Shown in pieces: positions 1,127 through 61,388 of a stretch of 64,000 nucleotides of DNA. Where the stretch lies: the IMG/VR virus record IMGVR_UViG_3300013102_000005, positions 1-64,000 of that record, one strand, 5' to 3'. Source of the stretch: a virus. How positions within the stretch are numbered: position 1 is the first letter of the stretch; the number at the start of each line of letters is the position of its first letter. Under the pieces are notes generated by a model. That model made no database searches and had not been told where the DNA came from. It was given only the letters and a program-made list of their open reading frames with translations. The position numbers and the translations under genes were made by a program.

Positions 1127-3007
1127 GTGGGGGATGAGAACATGAATGACCAGGATCAGAAGAGAAACCAACCCGTGATGGACGTGGCGACCGTTGATGA
1201 CTTTGAACGCATCAATCTTTCGTCAATCCTTGCTATGACGAACACTCTCCACTTTCATACGCTGCAGGACGCATTCAACCGGGCAGCTCAAACTTCCAAA
1301 GAATCGGGAGATAGCGCTGCCGAACGTGGCTACAACGTGTTAGCTGTGATTTGCAGTTACCACTTTAATCCCAATAGAACTGATGCATTTAGCCCTCAAA
1401 TTATGATGGATGGTCGGAGGTCGCTAATACCGAATGACTACATTGGTGAGCAGCAGGACGTATTGATTCAAATCACAGAGCGGATTGATCATCCATTGCT
1501 AAGAGCTCGGATCGCTGATAGCTGCTGGTACACGAATAGAAAGCTTCACAGGATGGCCGAGGTAGCGTCCAGATCTTACCTTGACGCGGTGAATATGTTC
1601 TTTGCTAGAGTTCTTTTCTATCAGTACGAGTCAGATTTCGAGGTGCCGTCAAAGGTAGTTGATCTGGTTGATCGAGCATTTTCAATATACGCTTCAACCG
1701 GAAAAAGAAAATCGATTCCAGATTACGCTAAACAAACATTTTCGAAAGCTTATGAAATTGCGAAGGATAAGCTGAATATAATAGCATTCCATAGGCTTTC
1801 CTCTCTTGGGAATAATTTCGGATTGCTTGAATGGAAAGACATAGCCAAAGACGCTGAGTCAATTGCAATTGCTACTAAAGACAAACAATATGCTGAGGCA
1901 GTAAAAAAAGTTTGGCTACATGCGGCTTATGCGTATTCTAAGATAGGCGACAAAGATGCTTCCAATCAATGCAAGGTAAACGCAGTTGAGCAGACACTTA
2001 GGCTAAGGGATGCCGTCAGCTCATCTATGGCGAAAGCGTCATGGACAAGGGATGCCATTGGTGAACTTAGGTCTATAGGTGGCATGAATGATCGAATCGC
2101 CGAATTAAAATCTGAACTACAGCAATACGAGGAAGACTCGCTATCCGAATTAAGCGAGTTCAGTATACCAATAGATTTAACTGAAGAGCGACGGGCAACG
2201 ATCGAGAACTTCGAGGGCTTGGGGATTCACGAAATGCTCTACCGGTTAGCATTCGCTTCGAGACCACCAGAAAAGATTGCCCTGCATAAAAACTGTCTCC
2301 AGAAGAAAAATAAATATTTCCTATCCTCAATCGCGGGAAAAAGCTATTCCGACGAGCAGGGGAAGATGATTGCTCAATCACCATCAGCTGGTTTTAGAGA
2401 CAAACCTTCTGAAGAGTGGTTCGATCATGAGAGTCTGACAGAGGTTGGATTCCGCTATCATGTTGAAGCCGAGGCTTTCATTAAGCCCGCGTGTATCACT
2501 ATGGTTCAGAATGAGTCTATTGACGAACGACATATAGAGCCGATTGTCTACCACAGCGCGTTCATACCACCAGGACACGAGGCAATTTTCGCACTGGGTT
2601 TCGCTCGAATGATTCAAGGGGACATGGTGTCGGCTGTGCACATGCTCATTCCTCAGTTGGAAAACTCGCTCCGATACGTGCTTACTAATCGGGGACTTAG
2701 AACTGCAAAACTCAATGTTGATTTGACTCAAGAAGACCAGTCACTCAGCCAAATGTACTCAAACCGTAAAGAGGAACTTGAAAAGGCTTTTGGCCAAGAC
2801 ATTACCTACATTTTCCATCTGCTTTTCAACTTAAAGGGCGGGCCTATGCTGAGACACGAAATGGCTCACGGAAAGCTGACTATTGGTGACTGCTACAGCG
2901 CCCCATGTATCTATGCATGCTGGCTAATTTTTCACATCACCTGTCTTCCCCTCGTGAGCTTCTGGAAAACTCACATTGAGCCGGCGATCCAAGAAGTAGT
3001 TCATTGA
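1127..3007 (+). CDS. DUF4209-family protein with C-terminal HEPN-like RNase motif; putative anti-phage defence cargo
   Basis: 626 aa, AT-rich, opposite strand to flanks; LIPQLENSLR and RHEMAH (Rx4H) motifs. Confidence 0.75.
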   Translation: MGDENMNDQDQKRNQPVMDVATVDDFERINLSSILAMTNTLHFHTLQDAFNRAAQTSKESGDSAAERGYNVLAVICSYHFNPNRTDAFSPQIMMDGRRSLIPNDYIGEQQDVLIQITERIDHPLLRARIADSCWYTNRKLHRMAEVASRSYLDAVNMFFARVLFYQYESDFEVPSKVVDLVDRAFSIYASTGKRKSIPDYAKQTFSKAYEIAKDKLNIIAFHRLSSLGNNFGLLEWKDIAKDAESIAIATKDKQYAEAVKKVWLHAAYAYSKIGDKDASNQCKVNAVEQTLRLRDAVSSSMAKASWTRDAIGELRSIGGMNDRIAELKSELQQYEEDSLSELSEFSIPIDLTEERRATIENFEGLGIHEMLYRLAFASRPPEKIALHKNCLQKKNKYFLSSIAGKSYSDEQGKMIAQSPSAGFRDKPSEEWFDHESLTEVGFRYHVEAEAFIKPACITMVQNESIDERHIEPIVYHSAFIPPGHEAIFALGFARMIQGDMVSAVHMLIPQLENSLRYVLTNRGLRTAKLNVDLTQEDQSLSQMYSNRKEELEKAFGQDITYIFHLLFNLKGGPMLRHEMAHGKLTIGDCYSAPCIYACWLIFHITCLPLVSFWKTHIEPAIQEVVH

Positions 3008-5387: not shown

Positions 5388-7300
5388 TGCTGCTGCGCTC
5401 CCAGCACGGACTGCGCCCTTTCCAGCAGGGCCTTGACGGGGTCTTTGTTGAAGCGGGTAGAGATCACGTTCTGCCAGGTCTTGCGCATGGAGCTGCCCTG
5501 GGTGTGGGCGATCACCATGAAGGCCTTCACCAGTTCGAGGTCGCCGTGGATGGCCGAAAAGTCGGGTATGTAGAGGCGGGCGCCGTCTTCGGTCGTGACC
5601 AGGTAGCCCTTGGCGTTGCGCTGCGTGTTTTGGTTGCGGAACACGCCCTGGAAGACGTGCATGTCTTGCCAGCCACCCAGGTAGGTCGGCACCTTGCCGC
5701 GCACGAAGGCGTAGCGGCCAAAGTGGCTGGCATCCTCGGCCCGCTCCGCCTGCAAGCGGTCCCACCAGCCGTCCACCGTCAGAGTCACCTGCTTGGCCAG
5801 GATGGCGACGGTCTCGACATAGAGCTTGCCGTCCTCTTCGCGCCGCTCCTGGAGCATGTCCACGGCGACCGTGTGCAGACCCAGCTTGGCCCGCATCGCT
5901 GGCGTCAGCTCGCTGGCCAGGTAGCCGGAGATCAGCGCGAACATTTCGGGATCCTTTGCGGCGAACAGCGCCGCATCCCTGGGGTTGGCCAGGTACTGGA
6001 CGCCCATGGAGAACACTTCGGTGATGCCGTCGGGGTAGATCTTGCCGATGTAGGGGTTCAGCCAGCTGTCCTTGTAGGCGACCTCGTCCTTGCGGTACTT
6101 CTTGTTGTCGGTGAGCCCGCGCAGGGAGTAGGCCATCCCGTCCTCACGTCGGCGCACGAGGAAGCCGTTGGCGGCCGCCTTTGCGATAGGGTCGTTTTCG
6201 AGGTGGTGCGCCAGCTCGTGGAACAGGACGGTGCGATCAAAGCGCGAACCGACGTTCACGACCTTCTCCCCCAGGCGCGTGGAGACGCCCACGGCGTTGG
6301 CGCGGCTACCGCCGTCCACGGAGATCCGCACCGCCGAAGACTTGCCACCGGTGAGGCGGTAGAAGTCGGCCATGTCCCGCAGCAGCGACTCACGGGTGTA
6401 GCCGCCACGTTCGAGCTTGGCCACCGCCTTGGCGTCCAGGATCTGCGTCGCGGCCCAGGCCTCGGCCTGCTCCTGGGTCACGGGCGATGCTTCGCGCAGC
6501 GCCGTCAGGATGGCTTGCCCTTCGTCTTCGAAAACGGCTTGGCTGCGCTTGAACTTGGCCTCATCGAAGGCGCGAGCAACGGCCAGGGCCTGATCCTTCA
6601 AGGGCTTGCGATCTTTCTGGTATCGCTCCCAGAGAACCGCCTCCTCCTCTTGGAGCTGGCGCAGCTCGGCATCGTCGCCGCCGTCCTTCACCAGCCGGCC
6701 AGCAGCCCGCAACTTCGGGTTGAGGACGTCCACAGCGGCCTGCATGGCATCGTCCAAGGCCTTGAGGGCGACCAGCGCCGCTTGCATCGCGGGATCGTCG
6801 TGCGCCGACTGCTTGAGCAGCTCCTTGGCTTCGGCCTCCTTGCGCAGCACGGTGGCGGCATCGATGCCGGTATCCACGCCCCTTGCCGAGATCTCCTCGT
6901 AGGCGGCCAGGTTGGCGATGTCGCGCTTGGGGCCCCAGACCCCTTCCAGGGCGATGTCGTTGGCGCGAGCGTCCAGGGTCTTGGAGCCGACCGTGCTGGC
7001 CAGCTCCGACACCGTCATGGCCTCGAACGGGACCAGGGCCTCGGGCAGCTGCTCCAGACCATCGTCCAGGTACTGCTCCAGCGCCTGGGTGGAGCCGGCC
7101 ACATCGGTCAGGGAAAACGCGATGGCGCGCATGGCGGTCTTGATGCCGGCGCCCAACTGCTCCAGCAGCTTGGCCACGACACCGGCGATACGCACGCGCT
7201 CTAGGGCAGGGAGTTCGCCCTCCAGGGAGCGAACATTTTCAGCGAGTTCGCCTGATAGGCGCACTCGATCAAGCGGAGAAATGGCGTCCAGAATTTCCAT
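5384..7300 (-). CDS. DdrB-like capsid-internal protein with zincin metallopeptidase domain
   Basis: LFHELAHHLE (HExxH) followed by YIGKIY..TEVFSMG; adjacent to darA; own late promoter element. Confidence 0.65.
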   Translation of the reverse strand: MEILDAISPLDRVRLSGELAENVRSLEGELPALERVRIAGVVAKLLEQLGAGIKTAMRAIAFSLTDVAGSTQALEQYLDDGLEQLPEALVPFEAMTVSELASTVGSKTLDARANDIALEGVWGPKRDIANLAAYEEISARGVDTGIDAATVLRKEAEAKELLKQSAHDDPAMQAALVALKALDDAMQAAVDVLNPKLRAAGRLVKDGGDDAELRQLQEEEAVLWERYQKDRKPLKDQALAVARAFDEAKFKRSQAVFEDEGQAILTALREASPVTQEQAEAWAATQILDAKAVAKLERGGYTRESLLRDMADFYRLTGGKSSAVRISVDGGSRANAVGVSTRLGEKVVNVGSRFDRTVLFHELAHHLENDPIAKAAANGFLVRRREDGMAYSLRGLTDNKKYRKDEVAYKDSWLNPYIGKIYPDGITEVFSMGVQYLANPRDAALFAAKDPEMFALISGYLASELTPAMRAKLGLHTVAVDMLQERREEDGKLYVETVAILAKQVTLTVDGWWDRLQAERAEDASHFGRYAFVRGKVPTYLGGWQDMHVFQGVFRNQNTQRNAKGYLVTTEDGARLYIPDFSAIHGDLELVKAFMVIAHTQGSSMRKTWQNVISTRFNKDPVKALLERAQSVLGAQQQ

Positions 7301-45101: not shown

Positions 45102-46337
<1,236 letters not shown>

Positions 46338-55985: not shown

Positions 55986-56036
55986 TGTAGGCACCCGAAA
56001 GACGAAGAAACTTCGGTAAAACGCCAGGGTTTGGCC

Positions 56037-56082
56037 GAAGTATTTTCGCATCAGGTGATACAGTTAACAATAGCAGATGCTA
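56037..56082 (-). promoter_or_regulatory. Early promoter: operator TAGCA-GA-TGCTA, extended -10 TGCTATTGT, conserved leader
   Basis: Operator 56071-56082; leader 56037-56061. Confidence 0.8.
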
Positions 56083-56239
56083 CAATTTTAGGGCTTCCTT
56101 TCCCATCCTGCTGGCCCGTGCGTCGGGATCCTGAACGGTCAGACGCCAGCAACGGCGGCCTATTGCGCGATCTACCCCCTACCCGCTACCCATGCACAGG
56201 GTGATAGCCGTTTGCTGCGCCTACGGGCCGCTCCGTTCG

Positions 56240-57166
56240 CTACAGGTTGCGCCGAGGGGCAGCGGCACCGGTGAATTTAGCCCGGTTGGCCTCCGCCTGC
56301 TTCATCGAACGCTCATACAGGGCATCCAGCTCGGCCGCGCTCACCAGATTGACCACGGTCTCCTGGCGCTCGTCGTACAGGCGCAGAATCTTCATCAGGG
56401 TCTCACGGGCCCGTTCCTGGTTGTGCACCATCAGCTCCAGACCTTCCTTGGTGCGCTTCACGCCGGCATACAGTGCCTGAGCGGACGGAGACAGGTTGCG
56501 CGTGTCCTTGAACACCTCGCGCTCGATGCCTTCGCCGTAGCACTCCGGGCAGCTCTCGACCGGCTCCTTGCGTGGATCGTAGCCCGTCCCGCCCTCGGGA
56601 TCGGGTTCGGGCGGTAGGTCAGCGTCGCTGGCGTCAGGGTTGCGCTCCAGGGCCTTGCGCAGGTCCTCCTCCCACTTGCGCTGCCGGTTGCGCCACTCGC
56701 CTGGCTTGTACTGATACAGGTGATCCTCCCCGTAGCAGAAGCGGCAGCACTCCCGGCGCATCTCCATGAGTTCGTTCGGGTCAGCGAACGCAACGGCCAC
56801 CAGCTGCTCTAGCACGCGCGTCTGGAGGTCTTCGCTCTTCTCGAACAGGACCTTGATGCGTAGCGCCATCAGCGCCCGGACCTTAGCGGAATTTAGCAGG
56901 CGATGCGCACTCGCACATGCCCCGCCGGTGCTCTGGACGTTGTAGACCGCCATGTAGGCCTTGGTCTGGTTGTAGGTCCGCAGGTACTCATCCACGAACT
57001 GGACGTGTTGCGGATCCATGCCAGAGACCAGCTCATCCTCAGCGGACAGCTTGGGATCGAGCACCACGGGAGCAGGCGCCTCCTCCTTGGCCGTAGCCTT
57101 GGATCGAGGAGGACGCTTGGGCTTGGCCTTGGGAGCTGGCTTATCCGCCTTGGGCTTGGGAGCCAT
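56240..57166 (-). CDS. Terminase small subunit with zinc-binding insert
   Basis: FVDEYLRTYNQTKAY...ASAHRLL TerS HTH; CRFC...CPEC; LYAGVKRTKEG. Confidence 0.8.
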   Translation of the reverse strand: MAPKPKADKPAPKAKPKRPPRSKATAKEEAPAPVVLDPKLSAEDELVSGMDPQHVQFVDEYLRTYNQTKAYMAVYNVQSTGGACASAHRLLNSAKVRALMALRIKVLFEKSEDLQTRVLEQLVAVAFADPNELMEMRRECCRFCYGEDHLYQYKPGEWRNRQRKWEEDLRKALERNPDASDADLPPEPDPEGGTGYDPRKEPVESCPECYGEGIEREVFKDTRNLSPSAQALYAGVKRTKEGLELMVHNQERARETLMKILRLYDERQETVVNLVSAAELDALYERSMKQAEANRAKFTGAAAPRRNL

Positions 57167-57287
57167 AGGGAGAACCTTGCAGGAATGAGAGGAACACGAC
57201 CACGGAGCGCCCTGCTGATCGAGCAATGGGAACCGTAGGCGATGCGGGGTATCGAGCCTTGCCGACTAGGGCAGGTATGTGAGCACC

Positions 57288-57330
57288 AGGGTATGAGGTG
57301 CTACGGGACGAAGCGGAGGGGGCTTTCCGA
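57288..57330 (-). promoter_or_regulatory. Late promoter element TCGGAAA-N30-TACCCT
   Basis: TTTCCGA 57324-57330; agggta 57288-57293. Confidence 0.8.
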
Positions 57331-57355
57331 AAGGGATCGCCCTATAGGGGTGGTA

Positions 57356-57892
57356 TTACCGGTGACGCTTGGACAGGTAGGGATTGGGGAGGCGGTAGAC
57401 GGCGCGCTCGACCAGGCCGGCCCAGAACAGGGTGGCGGCACTCAGGGACACGGAGAGGCTGTAGGCACCGGCCAGGGCGGCAGTGCAGGCCTCATGACCG
57501 GTTACCGCTGTCAGGCCGAAGTAGACCAGGGCGGCGCAAGCATACAGGGCGCGACGGGCCCAGCGCTTCCAGCGTACCGACATGCCGAGGCGGTTGCGCA
57601 GCTCGATGACGTCGCCCTCCCGCATGGTCATGCGCATATTGCCGCCGGCGGTGACCTTCACGCCCTTGTAGAGGAAGGCAGTACCCTCCCGTAGCTGGAT
57701 GTCCACAAGGGTGTGCGGCTGTACGGCCATATCGGCCCGGCGGGTGGTCAGCCAGGCGCGCAGGCGGTTGGGGCGAGGTGGCAGCTTGCGGCTCTCTTCG
57801 GCCTCACGGCAACCCAGGCACCAGATCAGGTGGCCACCGATCTCGTCGTAGCGGCACTCGCAGGTCTGGGGGATACGAGGCTCACACGTCAT
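57356..57892 (-). CDS. Hypothetical membrane protein
   Basis: N-terminal Cys pairs, two C-terminal TM segments. Confidence 0.5.
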   Translation of the reverse strand: MTCEPRIPQTCECRYDEIGGHLIWCLGCREAEESRKLPPRPNRLRAWLTTRRADMAVQPHTLVDIQLREGTAFLYKGVKVTAGGNMRMTMREGDVIELRNRLGMSVRWKRWARRALYACAALVYFGLTAVTGHEACTAALAGAYSLSVSLSAATLFWAGLVERAVYRLPNPYLSKRHR

Positions 57893-58060
57893 ACGTCACC
57901 TGGGTGATGGGTGAAACCATGGAAGAAAAACGCATGCTGGACCTCGGTAACGGTTGAATGGGTCCCGGTTACTCCATCCGGGGCGCTCTGGTAGCGGCTT
58001 CGAGGGCACGCTGTGCGCAGCAAGCGACTTGCGGTCGCGGCGCCCGATACCCTGGGCGCG

Positions 58061-58165
58061 TGGTGCAGGTGGCCGGTGCCGTCTCTCCGGCTTGTTGCTC
58101 GTCCCGCTATGGGAGCAACCCCAGGCGGCGGGTTTCAGTGCGCATCGGCCTGCGCATTCACCTGC
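58061..58165 (-). ncRNA. tRNA-like RNA with canonical acceptor stem and encoded ACCA but no canonical anticodon or TPsiC loop
   Basis: GCAGGTG/CACCTGC + A-CCA; TGCGCA-GGCCGA-TGCGCA arm; GCCGG-AGAGACGGCA-CCGGC arm stacked on acceptor. Confidence 0.6.
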
Positions 58166-58263
58166 ATCGGTAGAACGTCCTGCCAGGGCTCACCAGGAAA
58201 AGGTGCGGGCCCTGGCAGGGCGCTCTCCCATGCAGCCCACACTGCCGTGGGTGCAATCGGGGG

Positions 58264-58761
58264 TCAGGCGGCGGCCCGCGCCTCTTGTGCAAGCGGCTGG
58301 CAGAAGTTGCGAGCGACCTGATCCAGGTACTTGGCGCCCACCAGGCCGAGGGTCTCAAAGCCGGCCAGCTCCTCAACGCTGAACTGCACCAAGGAGACGA
58401 GATCCACGACGCCGGCCGGATACAGCACCTGGCGATATTCGTAGGGCACCCGCATATCCAGCAGGGAGGGATTACCGAAATCCACCTCCGGGCCATCCGC
58501 CAGGCACAGGCCATGAGCACGAAGCAGGTTGTGGATGTGTGCAGCGCCCCGGTAGCGGATACCCGGAATGTCGATGAGCTCTTCCAGGCTGGTGCACTGG
58601 AGATCGACGACGGTGAGGATGTTGGCGCGAGCCAGGTCGCTCAGCTGCTTGGTGCAAAGACCCAGGGTGGCCAGGTCGAGCGCGGCGATCAGCGCCCGAT
58701 CAAGATCGGCGACGACGATGGCGGCGGCCAGGGAGGTGGTGCTAACACTGTCTTGGGTCAT
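58264..58761 (-). CDS. Tandem RNA polymerase alpha-CTD-like (HhH) protein
   Basis: Two repeats resembling alpha-CTD: LATLGLCTKQLSDLARANILTVVDL..SLEELIDIPGI..HNLLRAHGLCL and LLDMRVP..LYPAGVVDLVSLVQFSVEELAGFETLG. Confidence 0.7.
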   Translation of the reverse strand: MTQDSVSTTSLAAAIVVADLDRALIAALDLATLGLCTKQLSDLARANILTVVDLQCTSLEELIDIPGIRYRGAAHIHNLLRAHGLCLADGPEVDFGNPSLLDMRVPYEYRQVLYPAGVVDLVSLVQFSVEELAGFETLGLVGAKYLDQVARNFCQPLAQEARAAA

Positions 58762-58855
58762 GGGTTCACGTCTTTGCGTGGCTGTATGGGGGAGGCACCT
58801 GAGCCAGGGGACTCTCCGATACAGCCCGACCGCCGCAGCGGCCAGGCATAGCGCA

Positions 58856-59275
58856 TCAGCGGCGAGCGGCGCGCGGCTTCTTGGGCTTGGTGTCGGGCAC
58901 CTGGGCCGGATCGGTCTTGGCCACCGCCGGGCCGGCATCGGCCAGCAGGGTGTGGCGCGGCAGGCCCTCGGGGGTGACAGCCATGTGACGGCACTTCACG
59001 ACGGTCGCCGGGGATCTCTGGCCAGGAAGGTCTGCAACGTCGTAAACCACCAGCACCAGGTGATCACCCACCTCGGGCAGTACGCCGCCCACGAAGGTGT
59101 CCGCGATCTTGTCGTTCTCGACAGCGACGCCGTGAGGGATGTACTCGGGCTCGGGCTGGCGACTGAGCCAGGATTGCGCCAGCGCGTGGATGGCAGGCGC
59201 CGAGTTCGGGTCTTGCAGCGCGCCATTGAGGGCGTATTGCAGTTGCTGGGGCGTCATGTCTTGCGGCTGATTCAT
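58856..59275 (-). CDS. Hypothetical protein
   Basis: MNQPQDMT start; phage-like codon usage. Confidence 0.55.
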   Translation of the reverse strand: MNQPQDMTPQQLQYALNGALQDPNSAPAIHALAQSWLSRQPEPEYIPHGVAVENDKIADTFVGGVLPEVGDHLVLVVYDVADLPGQRSPATVVKCRHMAVTPEGLPRHTLLADAGPAVAKTDPAQVPDTKPKKPRAARR

Positions 59276-59469
59276 GTCGGTCTCACTGGTCTCGGGTTGC
59301 TGCTGCATGGCTGCATGGGTCAGGACGCCGGCGCCGGTCGCGCTGCGTACTCACCGATGCACCCTTGCGGGGTTCGGGCCGGTTGCCACTCCCGGCGATC
59401 ACCCTCACCAGCGTCGCTGGCCAGGGCATCGGCTTCACCCTGTGCGGCCACTGCCAGCCAGGGAGGTCT

Positions 59470-59538
59470 TGGGCGAGGCGGTGGAGTTGAACCACCGAGT
59501 CGGGATGATGAGTCCCGTCTTGCACCGGCATGCCTCGC
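59470..59538 (-). tRNA. Atypical tRNA(CAT) with shrunken D-arm
   Basis: GCGAGGC/GCCTCGC acceptor; CGGGA-CTCATCA-TCCCG anticodon arm; GGTGG-TTCAACT-CCACC T-arm; followed by CCA. Confidence 0.7.
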
Positions 59539-59750
59539 AGTGCTCATGCCCTCTTGACGCCCGTTGCCGGGGAGGACTTACGACTGGGTCCCGCCATTGG
59601 GCCAGCCCACTCCGTTGGGCGACCCTGCCGAGGAGGTTGCCGGCAGGCGTATCAGCTGTGTGGGATGGTGGCCCTACGCTCTCCACACCCACGTATCCAG
59701 GCTATCCCTCCGCGAGGGCCGCCCTGGCACGGTGTTTCCAATCCCTCAGC

Positions 59751-60494
59751 TCAAGCGAACAAGTCGCCGCTCGGGCTGCGTTCGGCCTGGGCCCGGTCGC
59801 GCAGGTCGGCGCGATCGGCGATCAGGTCGATGCTGATTTGCTTAACGTTCTGCGCGGTGGACTGGCGCATCCGGCGATCAAACTCACCGTTGGCCACCTG
59901 GAACTCGCGCTCGATGATTTCGCAGTGCTTCAACTCGCCCGCGATACGGGCATCCGCACCGGTGATGACGTCTTCAAGGCCGCGCAGAGCCGCCTCCAGC
60001 GTTGCCGAGCCGCGCCACTCCTCCTCGTACTCGGGATTGAGCTGGGCCATGCGGCGATGGGCGTGCTTCACGTCCTTGAGCTTGATGGCGATACGCTGGA
60101 GGTCGGAGCGGTCCTGGTTCTGGCCCTGGAGGGCGACACCCACCTGCTGGGCCAGATACTCGTGGTAGCGGCTGGTGGACTCGGCGATGGTGTTGGCCAC
60201 CAGCCTGACGCGAAAGCTCTGGTTGTTCTCGGCAGCGTCGGCCAGGGGGTCGTCGCTGGTGCCGGACAGGTAGTCCAGAGGTACTGCGAACAGCTCGGCC
60301 ATGCCGATCATGTCCAGCAGCTTGGGCATGCGCTCACCGCTCTCCCAAAGACTGATCTGGGTAGCGTTTTCGTGTCCCAAGTGATGCGCAACTGCGTCCT
60401 GGCTCATGTCCGCCAATTTGCGGGCAGCGTAGATGCGGCAACCTATGATCTGGCGCAGCTTTGCGGCTCTTTCGGCAGCGGTCGGAATGGCCAT
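59751..60494 (-). CDS. XRE-family HTH repressor with coiled-coil C-terminus
   Basis: IYAARKLADMSQDAVAHHLG...ISLWESGERMP...FAVPLDYL. Confidence 0.85.
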   Translation of the reverse strand: MAIPTAAERAAKLRQIIGCRIYAARKLADMSQDAVAHHLGHENATQISLWESGERMPKLLDMIGMAELFAVPLDYLSGTSDDPLADAAENNQSFRVRLVANTIAESTSRYHEYLAQQVGVALQGQNQDRSDLQRIAIKLKDVKHAHRRMAQLNPEYEEEWRGSATLEAALRGLEDVITGADARIAGELKHCEIIEREFQVANGEFDRRMRQSTAQNVKQISIDLIADRADLRDRAQAERSPSGDLFA

Positions 60495-60524
60495 GGACGA
60501 CGTCTCTCATGGGGTGAATTTCTG

Positions 60525-60536
60525 TAGCAAATGATA
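60525..60536. promoter_or_regulatory. Operator TAGCA-AA-TGATA upstream of XRE gene
   Basis: Variant of repeated palindrome in AT-rich intergenic region. Confidence 0.65.
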
Positions 60537-60616
60537 GAAATATCACACCCTAACCGCAACGCAGTTCACGCTTTCCCTGTGAACTTATTCCCATTGACAG
60601 GATCGTTTCTGTCGAT

Positions 60617-61096
60617 CTAGGAAAACCGGATGATTTCGTCCACCTGCTGCTGTAGCCGCTGCTCGTCCAGCTGGTTGCGGTACACGTGCTTGAGGATGGC
60701 GTTGATGACGTCGGAGTAGATCGCCTGGGCCTGCTCTTCCTTGCAGTTGGCGTAGCTCAGGCTCGCGGCCTTGAGCCGCACCTTGCCGGTGATGTCATAG
60801 GTCGGCTCGTAGTGGCCGGCCATGATGATCAGGTCCTTGCGGAAGCGATCGATGCACGGCACCACCTGGCGGCCTCGGTACTCCATCGCGGCCAGGTTGT
60901 TCTCGCACCAGTGGTCATAGGCCACGCGGAACAGCACCATGGTTTTCTGGAGGAACTTGTAGTTGCGGACCTGCTTGACCTCGCAACGCACGCCAGCGCC
61001 GACCTTGAGCCTTTGCAGCTGCTCGATGCCCTCCTCGGTGGCCGGCCGTAGCGACCCGTCCATGGTCTTGACGAGGATGATCTCCAAGGCGCGCAC
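60617..61096 (-). CDS. DUF1367 (NinB-related) protein
   Basis: VRNYKFLQK...DRFRKDLIIMAGHY...SLSYAN. Confidence 0.8.
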   Translation of the reverse strand: MRALEIILVKTMDGSLRPATEEGIEQLQRLKVGAGVRCEVKQVRNYKFLQKTMVLFRVAYDHWCENNLAAMEYRGRQVVPCIDRFRKDLIIMAGHYEPTYDITGKVRLKAASLSYANCKEEQAQAIYSDVINAILKHVYRNQLDEQRLQQQVDEIIRFS

Positions 61097-61109
61097 TCCA
61101 GAGGGTGCG

Positions 61110-61388
61110 CTACTCCTCGGTGGCGTTGAGCCCCAGGATCTCGTGCACCCGTTGTTTCAGGGCTGGGAAGAGGTGCGGGGCGTCCCGGCGCTCGGCCTGC
61201 ATGATGCGGCGGCGCTCCAGACGATCCGGCTGGGACATGATGAAAGCGGTCAGGTAGTCCACCCGGAGCGCCTTTCCGATTTCGCAGTAGCGCGCCGACG
61301 GCGCATGGCAGCAGCGTGCTGCGCTCATGATGTGAGCGAGGTAAGGCGCGTGGGCCGCTTCCACCGGATCAGTCTCGAGATCGGTCAC
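61110..61388 (-). CDS. Hypothetical protein
   Basis: GTG start overlapping upstream stop. Confidence 0.5.
   Translation of the reverse strand: MTDLETDPVEAAHAPYLAHIMSAARCCHAPSARYCEIGKALRVDYLTAFIMSQPDRLERRRIMQAERRDAPHLFPALKQRVHEILGLNATEE
61237..61279 (-). promoter_or_regulatory. Late promoter element TCGGAAA-N30-CATCAT, internal to an ORF
   Basis: TTTCCGA 61273-61279; atgatg 61237-61242. Confidence 0.55.

Follow-up and report, generated by a model that had tools for sequence, protein, structure and literature searches.

The DNA analyzed here (the window) comprises the first 64 kb of a 93,777-bp phage record in IMG/VR (IMGVR_UViG_3300013102_000005), which carries terminal repeats and has a G+C content of approximately 65%. 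Between 56 and 64 kb, all genes lie on the minus strand, in the order PAPS reductase, dUTPase, an unknown gene, NinB, a helix-turn-helix (HTH) protein of the XRE type, p150, p165, p178, and terS, as assigned by Pfam and PHROG searches. Three gene-free gaps among the XRE gene, p150, p165, and p178 are occupied by RNA modules. A first-pass annotation had described these gaps as dense in GC-rich hairpins, including three SCCGG/CCGGS arms and two tRNA-shaped elements ending in CCA. All hairpins that it named were found where it had placed them, on the minus strand. The observation was confirmed and extends far beyond chance, its interpretation was partly supported, and the gaps were found to form an island in which five kinds of separately conserved, exchangeable RNA modules alternate with three small protein genes.

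Comparative analysis relied on a small group of relatives. A 7.6-kb IMG/VR contig (L003) is 94% identical across the region. An element of Pseudomonas luteola NBRC 103146 (L004, corresponding to L015 in IMG/VR, 89.7 kb) and a phage from a Pseudomonas metagenome-assembled genome (L005, corresponding to L016) were found via homologs of the XRE protein, and an alignment of terS added L116 (98 kb), L113/L115, and others. XRE-based searches of metagenomes and genomes yielded few true relatives, and a phage DNA search with the whole region as query gave no match. The relatives keep the order NinB, XRE, a variable interval of 2.5–4 kb, and TerS, and synteny of NinB, XRE, RNA island, and TerS is kept in L004, L005, and L116. 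This ninB-to-terS order matches the lambdoid nin/Q/late region, and in it the XRE gene occupies the position of Q and not that of cI, which makes the earlier description of the island as lying downstream of the repressor doubtful. The L004 element (NZ_BDAE01000020.1, 89.5 kb; IMG/VR 2663762783_000006) fills its whole assembly contig and is classed with terminal repeats; it may be a prophage that exists as an episome or replicates actively and, since the host strain is cultured, would offer a practical experimental system.

Substitutions relative to L003 were mostly located at codon position 3 in the XRE gene (59751–60494, minus strand, 247 amino acids, Pfam HTH_3 and PHROG; 37 of 40), p150 (58856–59308, minus strand; 8 of 11), p165 (58264–58761, minus strand; 20 of 26), and p178 (57356–57892, minus strand; 26 of 32), with approximately 5–15% of third positions changed. 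Because substitutions concentrate at this position, these four open reading frames are real genes. The 442-nt intergenic region after xre (IGR1) differs from L003 by 2.5%, with most changes within its first 40 nt, and the 94-nt IGR2 by 1.1%. Since these values are well below the 5–15% observed at third positions, the intergenic DNA is much better conserved than synonymous sites and is under purifying selection. Together with covariation in individual elements, this result bore out the proposal that the gaps encode structured RNA under selection. Folding energy was a weak discriminator, with z = −1.65 for IGR1 and z between −0.5 and −2.4 for single elements. These weak scores, and the abundance of SCCGG palindromes in the genome, are what speaks for regarding the hairpins as functionless chance products of intergenic DNA with 65% G+C. 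Against such an origin stand the purifying selection on the intergenic regions, covariation in three of the elements described below (E1, TL1, and TL2), the occurrence of the core of TL2 at no fewer than 120 loci, and an approximately 600-fold excess of one hairpin type (H) over shuffled sequences. We give a chance origin practically no credence, as it is already refuted by the comparative data.

A consensus scan of positions 56000–61200 detected no sigma-70-like promoters on either strand and no terminator-like sites on the gene strand. This outcome fits a predicted single transcript from the xre promoter region and, with all modules in a single orientation, agrees with the first-pass proposal of one transcript. 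Upstream of xre (60495–60616, minus strand), an inverted repeat (GTTCAC-N9-GTGAAC) and a weak promoter-like sequence (TTGCGG-17-TATCAT, below the threshold of the promoter scan) were noted by eye; they probably represent the operator and promoter of the unit containing the RNA island. In searches with Rfam 15, no match at gathering score was found for the island in the window, its relatives, 12 loci of the TL2 family, or the leader of phage IME10, the last searched at E up to 10. The prospect that all elements would belong to described families thus did not materialize, as no element matched one.

The most widely distributed module, TL2 (58166–58061, minus strand), has the architecture of a tRNA-shaped four-way junction, which is kept in the window, L003, L116, L004, and L005. 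Its closing helix P1 (UGCAGGUG/CACCUGCA) is followed by an AAU linker, a hairpin P2 (GCGCA-GGCCGA-UGCGC), a variable middle of 47 nt, and a hairpin P4 (GCCGG-AGAGACGGCA-CCGGC, with an N10 loop) that directly adjoins the P1 3′ strand. TL2 shows all features by which the wider family was recognized: a P1 3′ strand abutting a 5-bp P4, the combination of AAU with GCGCA-GGYYGA-UGCGC, and complementarity between the loops of P2 and P4. The AAU-P2 core AAUGCGCAGGCCGAUGCGC (58158–58140, minus strand) occurs as a single copy in the genome. Among the five lineages, the middle ranges from 47 to 95 nt without sequence similarity. The five complete genomes of the group all lack a reverse transcriptase, for which a search was made in connection with the idea that a retron or diversity-generating retroelement might underlie the variable middle. 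Only three of the five lineages (the window, L003, and L116) have an A-CCA tail.

A scan of IMG/VR for the 19-nt AAU-P2 core identified at least 120 loci; of 86 copies inspected, 84 also had the remaining architecture in parsable form. In a stricter pass over IMG/VR and cultured phages, which included the copies of phages IME10 and mEp460, 81 copies were parsed, of which 67 were distinct. Among these 67 copies, P1 was represented by 32 distinct 7-mers, with 94–100% pairing at each of the seven positions, and P4 showed the compensatory variants GCCAG/CUGGC, GUCGG/CCGAC, and GCAGG/CCUGC. Complementarity of at least 4 bp between the loops of P2 and P4 was found in 63 of the 67 copies, as compared to a mean of 19 and a maximum of 32 when P4 loops were shuffled. 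The loop pair of the family is GCUGA:UCAGC. The window alone has a GGCCGA loop, which is matched by CGGC in its P4 loop, so that both sides of the pair have changed (GCCG:CGGC). This compensated pair supports a predicted loop-loop interaction resembling the elbow of a tRNA. In the modeled topology, which is tRNA-like, P1 would stack on P4 as an acceptor stem does on a T arm, P2 would take the place of the D arm, and the free variable domain would take that of the anticodon arm. In TL2 itself, P4 does not carry a T loop. Approximately half of the family copies have closing stems of 14–30 bp. A full-text literature search for two core sequences of TL2 did not retrieve any paper.

One member of the family could nevertheless be traced to a published RNA through its primers and the sequence of phage mEp460. 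sRNA-17 of Escherichia coli K1 strain RS218 is a discrete 193-nt RNA, as established by RACE and Northern blotting; it is carried on an mEp460-like prophage, and its deletion changed the levels of 48 host transcripts (Sun et al., 2020, Front Microbiol 11:574833; PMC7719688). The primer CGTTGTGGTGAATGCGCAGGCTGATGCGCGAAA, listed for the “full-length” RNA in the supplement of that study, consists of the P1 5′ strand, the AAU linker, and P2 of the family, and phage mEp460 contains a complete family element directly 5′ of a terminator. Like TL2, sRNA-17 combines P1, AAU, and P2 (GCGCA-GGCUGA-UGCGC) with a variable middle and a P4 (GCCGG-AGAUCAGCA-CCGG) that abuts the P1 3′ strand. The 5′ end of sRNA-17 maps to the base of P1, and the RNA, encoded behind the repressor gene in the early-left (pL) leader, is finished by a terminator of its own. 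TL2, in contrast, lies between two late-region genes 5′ of terS without a clear terminator; its P1 is short and overlaps with the hairpin before it, and its loop pair is the compensated GCCG:CGGC. The publication on sRNA-17 describes neither a tRNA-like fold nor a wide distribution (PMC7719688). By its sequence, TL2 is a new and divergent addition to this family, of which one member has been published and many others are unannotated.

In mEp460 (L322, approximately 6855–6925, minus strand), sRNA-17 and its terminator are followed by a long hairpin whose tip is a copy of the initiator-tRNA anticodon arm, GGGCUCAUAACCC. This hairpin lies 215 nt past the TL2-family element in mEp460-type prophages, and the same arrangement was observed in L204 and L216. 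All eight occurrences of the GGGCUCAUAACCC motif in 1.57 Mb of fetched loci were located within 1.5 kb of a TL2-family element and on the same strand; they represent approximately five independent lineages, in two of which the motif belongs to a true tRNA. In L204, a match to the Rfam family of C4 antisense RNA and isrK (2538–2726, minus strand) is located approximately 2.4 kb from a TL2-family element, so that both coexist in one phage.

The genomic positions of the family bear on an alternative in which the island is a cis-acting regulatory leader, with one or more modules (TL2, E1) acting on RNA polymerase or on Rho/Nus factors to allow read-through into the late operon, either in the manner of HK022 put RNA or as an accessory to nut sites, and with small RNAs as by-products. 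TL2-family elements are indeed located where signals for processive antitermination are found. They lie between cI and N in IME10, Erwinia phage 59, and Edwardsiella GF-2; the IME10 element, after pL, has a boxA/boxB nut site 20–30 nt on its 5′ side and an arginine-rich open reading frame of the N type just 3′ of it. Other copies follow Q-like genes and precede lysis genes or terS, as in Pseudomonas phage AH02, where the element is located between nin/Q-type genes and lysis genes. PHROG tallies around family copies showed Q-like and repressor genes on the 5′ side and holin, endolysin, terS, RecT, and N-like genes on the 3′ side, with NinG genes among the upstream contexts. The location of the mEp460 element directly before a terminator can be read in the same way, as can the presence of approximately 60 kb of genes on one strand of the window phage, near whose island Pfam and PHROG searches recognized no N- or Q-like gene. 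However, transcripts of the mEp460-type element stop at a working terminator and build up as an RNA of 193 nt (PMC7719688), which argues against strong read-through, and IME10 already possesses an N protein and a nut site. Membership of TL2 in the HK022 put family was rejected: neither core motif occurred in the put region or elsewhere in 13.5 kb of HK022 that cover the early region, with up to three mismatches allowed, and put RNA has a different fold, consisting of two stem-loops in a V instead of a closed four-way junction (PMC9378689). We consider a role of the island as such a cis-acting leader unlikely, though worth keeping in view.

The second tRNA-shaped element, TL1 (59538–59471, minus strand), appears to be derived from a tRNA(CAU) and was called by ARAGORN as tRNA-Met(CAT). 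It shares with canonical tRNAs a perfect 7-bp acceptor stem (GCGAGGC/GCCUCGC) and a T arm (GGUGG-UUCAACU-CCACC) made of a 5-bp stem and a UUCRANY loop (G53, U54, U55, C56, A58, C61). U33 and a CAU anticodon are present in the anticodon arm (CGGGA-CUCAUCA-UCCCG), the stem of which carries a GGG/CCC run. It departs from them in having C at position 37 in place of a purine, A at position 8 in place of U8, and a D region of only 14 nt (UGC-CGGU-GCA) that does not form a regular D arm. TL1 did not match the Rfam tRNA model RF00005 (gathering score 29 bits), and its best match within the clan was tRNA-Sec at 20.9 bits (E = 0.9); true tRNAs of L005 score 64–69 bits with the Rfam tRNA model. Thus, for both tRNA-shaped elements the shape announced by the first-pass annotation was recovered, TL1 by ARAGORN and TL2 in five lineages and 67 copies, but the terminal CCA turned out not to be conserved.

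TL1 is 100% identical in L003. In its L004 homolog, acceptor and T stems have changed by compensation, and an 11-nt segment of the anticodon arm, GGGACUCAUCA, is identical. ARAGORN missed this homolog, in which the D stem is lacking, the loop has 8 nt, and pair 7:66 is a G-G clash; its encoded CCA is also in a different register from that of the window. L116 has a homologous flanking leader from which TL1 is precisely absent at the junction; because of this exact absence, TL1 is a discrete insertable unit. The equivalent interval of L005 contains a canonical tRNA-Thr and a tRNA-Met, and our reading of the sequence of the latter, with three G-C pairs beside the loop and A11:U24, suggests that it is initiator-like. 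These were the only tRNAs detected in the five complete genomes of the group. More distant relatives identified by terS often have tRNA-Met or tRNA-Thr 5′ of terS, and L121 encodes a tRNA-Met of 73 nt whose mini D arm (3 bp, 3 nt) is like that of TL1 and whose CUCAUAA loop is normal. A search of IMG/VR with the TL1 pattern returned only the known relatives and two chance matches within coding sequence.

Phage tRNA genes occur between the Q/nin region and the lysis or terminase genes of lambdoid phages. TL1 resembles them in lying at that site and in keeping acceptor, T arm, and CAU anticodon; it differs in its collapsed D arm, C37, lack of U8, and failure with the Rfam tRNA model, and in having an L004 homolog that is not recognized by ARAGORN. 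Our preferred reading of TL1 is a tRNA(CAU) gene that underwent remodeling and has been held constant since. That it instead encodes a working, if unusual, tRNA(CAU) that acts in translation, with the rest of the island being an ordinary leader, is suggested by the ARAGORN call, the perfect acceptor and anticodon stems, the canonical T arm, U33, the similar mini D arm of the L121 tRNA-Met, and the ordinary tRNAs at the same site in relatives. The pyrimidine at position 37, absence of U8 and of a D arm, a score under 20.9 bits with the Rfam tRNA model, whose gathering score is 29, and the uncalled L004 copy, with its 8-nt loop, 7:66 clash, and shifted CCA register, all oppose a function in translation and make it decidedly unlikely.

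The first-pass annotation had proposed small RNAs that act as tRNA decoys, possibly together with the RtcB ligase of the phage; in this model, TL1 and TL2 would act in trans on tRNA-targeting defense nucleases, for example of the PrrC, VapC, PARIS, or retron type. Several features would suit such decoys: the anticodon loop and stem segment GGGACUCAUCA of TL1 is invariant while other stems drift, the GGGCUCAUAACCC copy of the initiator anticodon arm recurs near TL2-family elements on the same strand in eight out of eight cases, TL2 mimics the outline of acceptor, T arm, and D-arm elbow, and this phage encodes RtcB. The link to RtcB was not upheld, however, as rtcB (45105–46244) is located 12 kb away and is absent from four relatives of 99–100% completeness that carry the island. 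Moreover, with C37, no D arm, and an 8-nt loop in the L004 homolog, TL1 copies no real tRNA well, and enzymes that read the elbow may reject TL2, whose P4 loop has no T-loop sequence and whose predicted elbow is of the Watson-Crick type. The family is not known to be linked to defense by any experiment; loss of sRNA-17 altered the levels of 48 host transcripts (PMC7719688). From the sequence features considered here, a decoy function of this kind would be quite unlikely.

A further suggestion, immunity RNAs of the P1 C4 or P4 CI type, found no support in the window. C4 and CI immunity RNAs are released by RNase P. Like these RNAs and HK022 put, the modules of the island are small structured RNAs at the start of a phage operon, but they differ in lacking any sequence or model match, including a match to Rfam C4 (RF01695) in the window, and no complementary target sites were found for them. 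For the TL2 middle, TL1, and E1, complementarity extended over no more than 10–13 nt, which is the chance level for the 188 kb of both strands of the 93.8-kb genome.

E1 (59732–59652, minus strand) is a motif of approximately 80 nt that starts 18 nt past the stop codon of the XRE gene and for which covariation was demonstrated. It consists of a nested hairpin (P0/P1/P2), followed by a second hairpin, GYGUGG...CCACRC, in whose loop GGAGAGCG...AUCCC is conserved. A covariance model (R1) built from four sequences matched only the window, L003, L116, and L004, with 77–97 bits. Ten of the 19 pairs have changed on both sides; the observed covariation was reached in none of 500 shuffles, and slid controls remained far below it. 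Beyond these four loci, neither pattern nor model found E1 in IMG/VR, and searches of 16 other genomes from the genus of P. luteola and 400 from its family did not find it either. The first nested hairpin of E1 corresponds almost letter for letter to the model consensus of the Rfam family Proteo-phage-1 (RF03044; GCCAGGG-GGCCC...GGGAUAGCCUGGA), but its second hairpin differs. Assignment of E1 to RF03044 was rejected, since its score of 26.3 bits (E = 0.08) compares with a gathering score of 42, the L004 homolog was not matched, and similar sub-threshold scores were also obtained in control genomes.

Directly after E1, the sequence contains a hairpin CCUGCCG-GCAACCUCCU-CGGCAGG (59624–59647, minus strand), whose stem, as judged by eye, is kept through other pairs in L004 (GGUGCCG/CGGUAUC) and in L116. 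The GCAACCUCCU loop (59631–59640, minus strand) resembles the anti-Shine-Dalgarno end of 16S rRNA, and the same loop in L116 has ...ACUCCU. From its sequence, this loop could pair with GGAG-rich segments, for example the 5′ strands of H stems (GGAGAG).

Three H hairpins, long imperfect stems located before other components of the island, share the base GCUG(C/U)AUYGG...CCRAU(G/A)CAG and are the only ones in the whole 94-kb genome. W1 (GUGCAUCGG...CCCAUGCAG; 59365–59310, minus strand) lies just 5′ of the start of p150 and has an equivalent before the p150 homolog of L116. W2 (GCUGUAUCGG...CCCAUACAGC; 58826–58780, minus strand) is located between p150 and p165 and shows a compensatory change from C-G to U-A in its base helix. 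W3 (58240–58160, minus strand), with a stem of approximately 30 bp and matches to miRNA-like hairpins in the Rfam search, precedes TL2, and there is overlap between its 3′ strand (AUGCAG) and the P1 5′ strand of TL2. In 21.7 kb of XRE-terS intervals from eight phages, the H base occurred 18 times, as compared to 0.03 times in shuffled sequences (approximately 600-fold). The interiors, of approximately 20–130 nt, are unrelated in sequence, and 6 of the 18 hairpins disappear when the opposite strand is read, an effect expected of G-U pairs. An H hairpin precedes a true tRNA in L005, TL1 in L004, and TL2 in L004, L005, and L116, and in L196 the H stem itself is the closing helix of a TL2 core.

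The large stem of the phage lambda N leader, between nutL and N, is a known RNase III processing site. H hairpins are likewise long imperfect stems, located before genes as the lambda stem is located in an operon leader, and the same lambda-type stem (GGCUUUGGG...CCAAAGC) closes the TL2 core in phages of the IME10 and L225 types. The lambda interior differs, however, in having neither P2 nor P4 motifs, the H base GCUGCAUYGG is specific to this group of Pseudomonas phages, and a role of RNase III in the window would be by analogy. E1 and the H stems are lineage-specific motifs.

The three SCCGG arms described in the first-pass annotation were present and are conserved in L116, L004, and L005, but the bare stem has 10 further copies in the 94-kb genome and is not special by itself. 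The first arm, GCCGG-GAGUGGCAA-CCGGC (59378–59396, minus strand), has a 9-nt loop ending in GYAA; it is identical over 27 nt in L116 and similar in L005 and L004. A second, CCCGG-AUGGAGUAA-CCGGG (57964–57982, minus strand), also with a 9-nt loop, is located 5′ of p178 and is conserved in L004 and, with its closing pair flipped, in L116 (GCCGG-AGGGGGUAA-CCGGC). The third (58091–58072, minus strand) is P4 of TL2. Another conserved non-coding element, of approximately 170 nt (GGCGUGCC...GGCUGCAGCGCU...AAAGACCCGUGAAU...GGGAAGUAAGCAGG...), was observed in L033 (3415–3535), L113 (1144–1270), and L115 (4924–5051), where it is 80–83% identical, lies within or after an H stem, and has no Rfam match; it is absent from the window.

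Among the protein genes of the region, p150 and p178 have no known function. The true start of p150 is probably the ATG at 59264; L116 has a p150 homolog, and the window and L116 share CAGUGAGACC-N3/4-AUG. p165, which is embedded among the RNA modules and absent from L004 and L005, showed weak, sub-threshold Pfam matches to the C-terminal domain of the RNA polymerase alpha subunit and to the N-terminal helix-hairpin-helix domain of RAD51D. p178 is followed by terS (56240–57226, minus strand; Pfam Terminase_2, PHROG 51).

With a little better than even confidence, we interpret the three gaps as one co-transcribed and processed RNA island in the packaging/late-gene leader of a temperate phage of the Pseudomonas type. 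In the proposed mechanism, a single transcript from the xre promoter region would span the island, host RNase III would cut the long H stems, and host RNase P might cut the acceptor-like helices, releasing stable small RNAs and separate mRNAs. The H hairpins, one before each downstream module, would most likely act as double-strand processing or stability stems of the lambda N-leader kind. Conservation, covariation, modularity, and family membership are established for the island, as is the existence of one family member as a discrete cellular RNA.

Several observations weigh against this interpretation of a processed island. Fold energies are not significantly better than those of shuffled sequences (z from −0.5 to −2.4), and relatives of E1 and TL1 are few, representing three and two lineages, respectively. 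Within TL1, 11 nt of the anticodon arm do not vary, which is more than a processing signal requires, and the bases of the H stems are conserved in sequence beyond the need of a pure RNase III substrate, which hints at a putative sequence-specific partner. The TL2 middle has been wholly replaced between the window and the 94%-identical L003, with unchanged flanks. Finally, we infer co-transcription, cleavage sites, stable products in this phage, and any role in trans from sequence.

A bolder hypothesis is that the TL2/sRNA-17 family is a genuine mimic of the tRNA elbow, combining an acceptor-T stack with a Watson-Crick kissing elbow of D and T loops, that it is deployed by temperate phages from Pseudomonas to E. 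coli, repeatedly together with copies of the initiator anticodon arm (TL1 and the GGGCUCAUAACCC hairpin), and that it engages a host machine that reads tRNA shape. We regard this hypothesis as rather unlikely. If true, RNase P, the ribosome, and a tRNA-targeting toxin or defense nuclease would be candidate machines, and the phages would possess a two-part, RNA-only system for host manipulation or counter-defense.

The organization of the window indicates that the late leader of a phage can be an array of exchangeable RNA modules instead of spacer DNA. TL2 extends a widespread, uncatalogued RNA family from the pL leaders of E. coli prophages to phages of the Pseudomonas type and to a new genomic position; the single published member of this family had been treated as an ordinary, strain-specific small RNA. 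The window supplies one natural compensatory variant (GCCG:CGGC) that backs the loop-loop elbow and makes the existence of a host reader of this shape a testable question. A second testable lead is provided by the D-armless tRNA(CAU) derivative and the recurrent neighbors that carry initiator anticodon arms.

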